Shown here piece by piece: positions 49,979-51,391 of a DNA stretch of 64,000 nt. The position numbers were made by a program, and so were the translations under genes. This stretch comes from Eledone cirrhosa. Taxonomy: Eukaryota. Position 1 is the first letter of the stretch, and each line of letters begins with the position of its first letter. Under the pieces are notes generated by a model, which worked only from the letters and a program-made list of their open reading frames with translations, was not told where the DNA came from and did no database searches. The stretch lies in NCBI GenBank assembly GCA_964016885.1, contig OZ024741.1, positions 89,342,001 through 89,406,000 of the forward strand. Direction: 5' to 3'.

Positions 49979-50016
49979 CCTTTACCGGTTTCGCAGTTCT
50001 TCTGCTTTTCAAAAGG
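49979..50016 (-). ncRNA. Variant-core (U3-A8) hammerhead, left palindrome arm
   Basis: Reverse complement of the 50089-50126 motif. Confidence 0.72.
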
Positions 50017-50088
50017 TGAGTTGAGATGGAGGGTCTGTGGTTTTTCTCACAGATGTGAGAAAAACCACAGACCCTCCATCTCAACTCA

Positions 50089-50126
50089 CCTTTTGAAAAG
50101 CAGAAGAACTGCGAAACCGGTAAAGG
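50089..50126 (+). ncRNA. Variant-core (U3-A8) hammerhead, right palindrome arm
   Basis: CCTT TTGAAAA GCAG-AAGAA-CTGC GAAACCGGTA AAGG, followed by AAATAAAT. All three stems form. Confidence 0.72.
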
Positions 50127-50418
50127 AACCAAATAAATATATATATTTAAAAAAAAAATAAGACTTCAGTTGCATTTTCGATTTCATCCCTTTTTCTTTA
50201 TACTTCCACTCGTGTAGGACACCTCGGTTATTTTTCATTTTGTAAAAAAAACCTCACTTTCTAATATATATATATATATATATATATATATATATATATA
50301 TATATATATATATATATATATATATATATATAATGAAAAATTGAACGGGAACAAAACATAGAGGCAGTAAAACAAATGTTTATTAATTTCACGCTCTTGA
50401 GAGTGGGGTGTTGGTGGG

Positions 50419-50453
50419 GAACGACGTTTCGGGCATAAGCCCTTCTTCAGGTG
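50419..50453 (-). ncRNA. Minimal hammerhead ribozyme
   Basis: Minus strand reads CAC CTGAAGA A GGGC-TTAT-GCCC GAAACGTC GTT; stem I is weak. The downstream ~80 bp recurs at 44091-44172 (+). Confidence 0.68.
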
Positions 50454-51353
50454 AAAAGTGTGTGGGAAGAGAGTTCAAAGGGTGTGTAGGGGAGTGGTGG
50501 AGAGACATATAGCAAAAAGAGGGTGATATATATATATATATATATATATATATATATATATATATATATATATATAAAACTGCGATAATATTGCATTTTG
50601 CTGAACTCCTTACTGTAGAGTTTTTTTCGGAATGTTTTTGACTGTTGTTTCTTGTAAACAAACTTTCGTCTCATTCTGACGTCAATAGCCATTTTTTCCT
50701 CATGTGCGTTTTTCGTGATCGCGCATGATGTTGGACTGGCCAGCTTTAGAATTCCCTTTTTGGCATATTAATCTGCGAGAATCCTGGTTATCGAGTTGAG
50801 CTCTGCTGATGATGAACCCTAACCGTGACCATCTCCGCTGAAAGTTTTCATGAAATAGTCTTACGACTATACAGAGCATTTGAAGTTTTTCCAAATTGAA
50901 GGATAGGTATCTTGAACTTTATTTTATCATGAGTTAAGGCTCTATTGATTTTTCCCTGGATTTCACTAAATTCTGTGGATGAATTTATATCCTGATTCTC
51001 TTTAAGATGAGTTTAAATTATTTTCCCCACATCTTACGTTAACTATTTTTCCCATTTTGACGCTATAGTCACTTATATACTATGGAATGCTGTTCGCTTT
51101 TCGCTGCAGTGTTTTCTATACCTTTCATTTATATATATATATATATATATATATATATATATATATATATATATATATATATATATATATATATATATAT
51201 ATATATATATATATATATATATATATATCGAATGTAGAAAGGCAACACACGAGTTGATATATATAAAAACAAATAGTAGAAAGGAAAAAGAATTTTTCAG
51301 TAGAAAATGTTGAAGAGATTCTTTTAGTGAAATTTCAAAACATTAATTTATTT

Positions 51354-51391
51354 ACAATACCGGTTTCAGCATTAAATGCATTGTCAATTGT
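51354..51391 (-). ncRNA. Variant-core (U3-A8) hammerhead
   Basis: Minus strand reads ACAA TTGACAA T GCAT-TTA-ATGC T GAAACCGGTA TTGT, followed by AAATAAAT. Confidence 0.7.

Follow-up and report, generated by a model that had tools for sequence, protein, structure and literature searches.

Does a stretch of the Eledone cirrhosa genome (64,000 nucleotides of contig OZ024741.1; here, the window) carry working variants of the hammerhead ribozyme in which the core pair C3-G8 is replaced by U3-A8, and if so, in what kind of genetic element do they reside? A first-pass annotation had proposed three such motifs, two of them mirror images, belonging to two distinct families. We examined their anatomy, their frequency in the 3.0-Gb genome, the elements that carry them, and their predicted folding.

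Three minimal hammerhead motifs with a U3-A8 core

All three motifs were present where the annotation had placed them. The family A motif (50089..50126, plus strand) is a minimal type I hammerhead with a U3-A8 core, a palindromic ACCGGU helix III, and A17. Its 5' part consists of CCTT of helix I (50089-50092), the TTGAAAA core (50093-50099), and GCAG/CTGC of helix II (50100-50112); the 3' part comprises GAAA (50113-50116), followed by CCGG, T16.1 (50121), A17 (50122), and AAGG (50123-50126). The mirror copy of this motif lies at 49979..50016 on the minus strand. Family B is represented by a minus-strand motif (51354..51391), likewise type I and minimal with a U3-A8 core, ACCGGU helix III, and A17. 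The helices pair as the annotation had described, although its notation for helix II of family B left out a U·U at the base: the region reads T-GCAT-tta-ATGC-T, with one unpaired U flanking the 4-bp helix on each side. The U·U at this position recurs in C3-G8 hammerheads of related foreign elements (L111, L124, L125, L146, and L188).

The window motifs have the anatomy of type I minimal hammerheads: the core N3-U4-G5-A6-N7-N8-A9, G12-A13-A14, A15.1-U16.1, H17 is complete in 3/3 copies, each with U3 and A8. Across 30 dinucleotide-shuffled versions of the window, a strict descriptor requiring U3-A8 and a palindromic helix III found no motif, and a relaxed descriptor gave a mean of 0.1 matches per shuffle versus 6 in the window itself. 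A common downstream sequence, AAATAAAT, was found in both families as described; an AU-rich 3' flank is, however, already part of the published consensus for such motifs. An Rfam search of the window at the gathering threshold returned no hammerhead match, the canonical C3-G8 minimal motifs there included. The sole Rfam match in the window was a histone 3' UTR stem-loop above the gathering score (5030-5075, minus strand), which a histone gene may adjoin.

U3-A8 is the prevailing core state of both families

The core states were counted as pattern matches over the whole genome, pairing not being part of the pattern. (A nucleotide search of the genome with 50054-50202, by a method that skips very common words, gave no match, and patterns were used instead.) With the 3' half GAAACCGGTA, we counted 19,587 matches for U3-A8, 98 for U3-G8, 134 for C3-A8, and 12 for C3-G8, versus 11 for the reversed control of the U3-A8 pattern. 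Insertions are fewer than matches, since many matches lie in inverted pairs, which by our own count hold 40 of the 100 U3-A8 matches listed first. The family B pattern matched 226 times (control, 0), and among the 100 matches listed, 98 were U3-A8, 1 was U3-G8, and 1 was C3-G8. U3-A8 is thus the norm for both families. The alternative, that these copies arose by chance, either as double mutants within a CUGANGA family or as matches in AT-rich DNA, is refuted by these counts and has a negligible probability in our estimation: only 12 C3-G8 matches share the 3' half, family B is nearly uniform among its listed matches, and neither the reversed control nor the shuffles yield comparable numbers.

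The annotation had also regarded the variant as rare and as one that standard CUGANGA searches overlook. The latter point was borne out, but the former does not apply to this genome. In the main canonical class counted, with the 3' half GAAACGTY, 17,130 matches were C3-G8 and 680 were U3-A8 (controls, 150 and 505, respectively), such that the core preference flips between this class and the one with GAAACCGGTA. U3-A8, with its 19,587 matches, is at least as numerous as this canonical class. Of the minimal hammerheads counted in these two classes, about half would therefore escape a search restricted to CUGANGA.

We considered whether the scarcity of U3-G8 and C3-A8 could serve as proof of selection on the 3-8 pair and rejected this reading. 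At 0.5 to 0.7%, these single mismatches are as scarce as U3-A8 matches with G17 (170 in the genome, or 0.9%), which points to passive decay of young copies and is not by itself evidence of selection. When position 17 was C or U, 290 matches were U3-A8 and 87 were C3-G8. The C3-A8 count includes several copies from one array with a period of ∼9.6 kb (G000:C1:348863669-348949714). C3-G8 versions were also seen within otherwise U3-A8 families (L034, L040, and L036 at 1501-1530). Independent decay would predict ∼0.7 C3-G8 matches against the 12 found, several of which come from other families (control, 2); this is a weak hint that the C3-G8 copies within U3-A8 families are reverted sublineages. 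A further small U3-A8 family in the genome has a GTCCC/GGGGAC helix II, an ACGU helix III, and U17.

The motifs lie in the terminal repeats of Penelope-like elements

Both motifs are hammerheads of the 3' terminal repeats of Penelope-like retroelements, which encode a reverse transcriptase (RT) and a GIY-YIG nuclease. Upstream of the family A motif is a repetitive 3' region of 1.1 to 1.4 kb, preceded by an open reading frame (ORF) with RT, a C-X4-C-X2-C linker, and GIY-YIG. In the 775-aa frame at one full-length locus (L195), GIY-YIG was matched at an E value of 4.4e-6 and RVT_1 at 1.3e-6, the latter just under the curated cutoff. A protein search of the genome gave 58 full-length matches, most of them stop-free. 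We fetched the loci of the 30 best full-length ORFs and searched their 1.5-kb flanks for the motif. A same-strand motif was found downstream at 28/30 loci, upstream at 8/30, and on both sides, in tandem, at 6/30; an inverted upstream motif was found at 8/30. All of the same-strand motifs beside these ORFs (36/36) were U3-A8, in agreement with U3-A8 as the family consensus, and a motif identical to the family A copy of the window also adjoins full-length ORFs. The family B motif was found 3' of broken homologous RT/GIY-YIG ORFs at two loci (L078 and L079).

The pseudo-LTR layout expected of Penelope-like elements is present, both as direct tandems (6 of the 30 loci) and as inverted truncated copies, as in the window palindrome. 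Among protein relatives, the best named ones come from Octopus bimaculoides (76% identity) and Argonauta (59%), with bivalve matches at ∼47%; identities among the closest relatives span 57 to 76%. Traits of the Neptune type are present, namely C-X4-C-X2-C ahead of the nuclease and (TA)n flanks. With the Neptune-type elements described by Craig et al. 2021 (PMC8557442), the Eledone elements share a C-terminal GIY-YIG, a CX2-5CxxC linker, and an insertion bias toward (TA)n, as well as 5' truncation, an upstream copy in inverted orientation, and a tail restricted to one end. By these features, the elements are candidate members of the Neptune type; Nematis likewise has a linker zinc finger. Our literature search on hammerhead ribozymes of octopus Penelope elements returned only Craig et al. 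2021. We also considered a non-LTR retrozyme, which Li et al. 2026 (bioRxiv) describe as short noncoding units in head-to-tail tandem, each with a hammerhead. The copies here are instead ends of coding elements, present singly or in inversion, and this assignment was rejected.

Six family B copies (L040, L052, L064, L068, L070, and L071) share a switch, ∼18 nt past the hammerhead, into another repeat. The repeat joined at this point is presumably a cephalopod SINE in reverse. The common switch point suggests the amplification of a single chimeric source copy.

The window copies are truncated and probably inert

In the window, family A is represented by a 5'-truncated 3' end, comprising the pseudo-LTR and tail (50054..50263, plus strand), which terminates in a (TA)n run and is 94.5% identical over 219 columns to a repeat of the full-length element at L195. 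An inverted, shorter duplicate of this end (49903..50051, minus strand) forms a 149-bp perfect palindrome with 50054-50202, the two arms of 149 nt being 100% identical and separated by a 2-nt spacer. The mirror motif at 49979 is real but, as part of one arm of this inverted repeat, is a duplicate rather than independent evidence for the hammerhead. Family B is represented by a 5'-truncated 3' end (51226..51449, minus strand) that is 95 to 97% identical to both ends of the L079 element. We considered whether the family B motif could be part of the neighboring intact ORF element (51582-53858), but it lies on the opposite strand and does not match the 3' end of that element (53851-54340).

Copies of these elements have (TA)n runs at their ends, and one arm of an inverted pair typically lacks the tail. 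The (TA)n ends and the tailless inverted arm match the insertion anatomy that Craig et al. 2021 reported for Penelope-like elements. The window copies would have arisen as by-products when 5'-truncated elements inserted into (TA)n, family A with an inverted duplicate at its 5' side. We infer that they are probably inert because they have no same-strand partner and the mirror arm would bury the family A motif in a long hairpin: a transcript across both arms is predicted to fold with 148 pairs at −252.6 kcal/mol.

Further hammerhead-like cores are found in the same window. The neighboring ORF (51582-53858, plus strand) is a stop-free Penelope-like frame of 758 aa from a different lineage, with a weak RVT_1 match and an end that resembles GIY-YIG by eye; a C3-G8 hammerhead-like core follows it at 54098. 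A decayed relative terminates at 46431, and a similar core lies near 46637. Canonical C3-G8 minimal cores with an ACGU helix III, members of the class of 17,130 matches, occur at 50423-50450 (minus strand), between the family A and family B motifs, and at 54782-54810 (plus strand). Finally, units of ∼420 nt in inverted and direct orientation occupy 48162-49400 and 55870-56930, each with a C3-G8 hammerhead that has an ACUAGU helix III (48702 and 56638). No ORF was seen in these units, which are possibly a nonautonomous, retrozyme-like derivative.

Positions 3 and 8 change together across related lineages

The annotation had treated families A and B as distinct. Their helix sequences do differ, but the elements are related: the RT regions are 52 to 53% identical, and the two families are sisters with an SH-aLRT of 99 in a quick tree of 23 rows. 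In a quick tree of 44 rows, both fall in one starred clade with octopod proteins. The 44-row tree omits 6 of 38 loci with less than 45% coverage; the 23-row tree further omits 12 proteins without a known core state and 9 rows that were long, gappy, near-duplicate, or U3-G8. Given this relationship, two independent compensations are probably not needed, and U3-A8 in A and B is most simply read as inherited from one ancestor. Independent origins of U3-A8 were considered as well and are not demonstrated: the quick trees need 3 to 4 core-state changes, and the AU test does not reject a single clade of the 7 U3-A8 rows (p 0.31).

To this we added 80 loci, drawn from public contigs of other organisms, that hold related elements. 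A strict scan located a motif downstream at 23 of these loci, comprising 18 C3-G8, 4 U3-A8, 1 U3-G8, and 0 C3-A8 cores, after exclusion of one U3-A8-like match within an ORF. Reading by eye 22 external loci that had no strict match contributed 10 more C3-G8, 1 U3-A8, and 1 U3-G8 core. Bases able to form a Watson-Crick pair at positions 3 and 8, either U3-A8 or C3-G8, were therefore present in 22 of the 23 strict external motifs. Together with the family-wide flip between classes within the Eledone genome, these counts indicate that positions 3 and 8 change together across lineages, in line with the annotation's view of the variant as compensatory.

A predicted double hammerhead in tandem elements

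In folding predictions, a single family A motif had a helix III probability of 0.0 within one strand. For two copies, the double hammerhead was the lowest-energy structure, with a between-strand helix III probability of 1.0 and with both ACCGGU and helix I paired between strands. Since a single motif is unable to close helix III, two copies on the same strand would be needed, as in tandem elements. The helix I states at family A loci (ACCTT/AAGGA, 48; TACTT/AAGGA, 14; TACTT/AAGTA, 1) would fit a compensated helix, but the numbers are too small for a test. Family B gave a different prediction: the between-strand helix III probability exceeded 0.5 in only 1 of 30 copies and was 0.01 for the window copy. 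The prediction for family B is thus not a hammerhead fold, since 29/30 copies are predicted to prefer a competing hairpin.

Taken together with the element structure, these predictions lead us to consider it likely that the three motifs are hammerheads of two truncated Penelope-like elements that are related to each other, located in their 3' terminal repeats, and that full-length tandems would pair via ACCGGU and cut after A17, with U3-A8 replacing C3-G8. In such tandem elements, the motifs of the upstream and downstream repeats would pair as a double hammerhead, forming helices I and III between them. The dimer is predicted to cut the RNA after A17, with U3-A8 expected to take the place of the usual C3-G8 core pair. 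By analogy with work on this class (Cervera and De la Pena 2014), slow cleavage would free element RNA of unit length from longer transcripts.

The motif might instead be a vestige that no longer cuts and is retained as a fold for the element protein, or a mere hitchhiker. The predicted misfolding of family B would fit this reading, as would the poor cleavage, even as dimers, of published minimal hammerheads of Penelope-like elements (Cervera and De la Pena 2014, PMC4209133) and the high copy numbers attained by Naiad elements, which have no hammerheads (Craig et al. 2021, PMC8557442). Nevertheless, families with wholly different helix II sequences have all kept a paired helix II, along with every catalytic core position and the palindrome of helix III, and positions 3 and 8 covary. 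As judged from sequence, this combination of a conserved core and 3-8 covariation fits an active core better than a generic fold, and we regard a vestige as improbable.

A17 may lock the cleavage site

A17 was found in 19,587 of the 20,047 U3-A8/ACCGGT matches (97.7%) and also in the listed members of several helix II families. In the predicted structures, A17 can pair with U3, extending helix I over the cut site; the probability of this U3-A17 pair in the family A dimer was 0.59, and the locked dimer was lower in energy than the open dimer by 1.4 kcal/mol for family A and 2.0 kcal/mol for family B. The analogous C3-G17 pair strongly impairs minimal hammerheads, and in tertiary-stabilized ones it lowers rates 8- to 100-fold (Kalweit and Hammann 2013, PMC3884650). 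These observations raise the possibility that U3-A17 caps the cut site, such that cleavage would be throttled or would need a protein or partner for opening, and that the lineage keeps this slow state. Also in favor of this view, U17 and G17 occur in the two U3-A8 motifs published from Schistosoma, and C17 or U17 at the four external U3-A8 loci from the strict scan.

Several points weigh against such a lock. At the end of a helix, A-U pairs far more weakly than C-G, and this pair is predicted to be only ∼60% formed; one young family dominates the A17 share, which may be inherited rather than selected; and the same genome has small U3-A8 families with C17 or U17. Because of the weak cap and the dominance of one family, we treat the lock as a hypothesis and think it unlikely to be the correct account. 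Its stronger form is more doubtful still: the prolific family would run on a self-locking hammerhead in which U3 toggles between A17 (off) and A8 (on), with slowed or chaperone-gated cutting as the selected state. We are equally skeptical that U3-A17 would be the U-A version of the C3-G17 trap that is normally avoided in nature. A literature search for a U3-A17 or A17-U3 hammerhead gave no match, although Lunse et al. 2016 may already describe U3-A8/A17 or a U·U mismatch.

Relation to published hammerheads and implications

The exchange of C3-G8 for U3-A8 in Penelope-like hammerheads is already in print. Cervera and De la Pena 2014 (PMC4209133) reported U3-A8 hammerheads of Cercyon Penelope-like elements in Schistosoma mansoni, with ∼1,300 matches and a descriptor; in their account, a Schistosoma motif had no activity as a monomer and low activity as a dimer. 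The Cercyon and Eledone hammerheads are alike in being type I with a short helix I and a palindromic, minimal helix III and in residing in the terminal repeats of RT/GIY-YIG elements. In both, copies are mostly solo or on opposite strands, and one S. mansoni motif (4) has the same UUGAAAA core. They differ in match number (∼19,600 in Eledone versus ∼1,300) and in the helix III palindrome (6-bp ACCGGU versus 4 bp), and Eledone is further set apart by a 4-bp helix II, A17 rather than U17 or G17, and an element lineage of mollusc type. Other Penelope-like hammerheads whose helix III is a small palindrome (Drosophila, rotifers, shrimp, and mosquito; PMC4209133) share the architecture, the predicted dimers, and the AU-rich 3' flank, but those listed in that paper carry C3-G8. 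Natural U3-A8 covariation was reported by Perreault et al. 2011 (PMC3088659), who also cite earlier in vitro activity; the same 3-8 covariation is described, and the passages on it draw no tie to dimer-type retroelement motifs. The dimer model is reviewed by Weinberg et al. 2019 (PMC6765202).

As far as we found, these reports are exceeded only in the number of copies and in a possible lock by U3-A17. The contribution is a modest one, adding a lineage of mollusc type and a match number more than 10 times that of Schistosoma to a known core variant. With its many intact ORFs and tandem layouts, family A is a convenient source for testing the role of hammerheads in retrotransposition and the putative slowing by U3-A17. 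Elements without hammerheads spread equally well (Craig et al. 2021, PMC8557442). If the lock were true, the self-locking family would provide a test case for what hammerheads do in Penelope-like elements.
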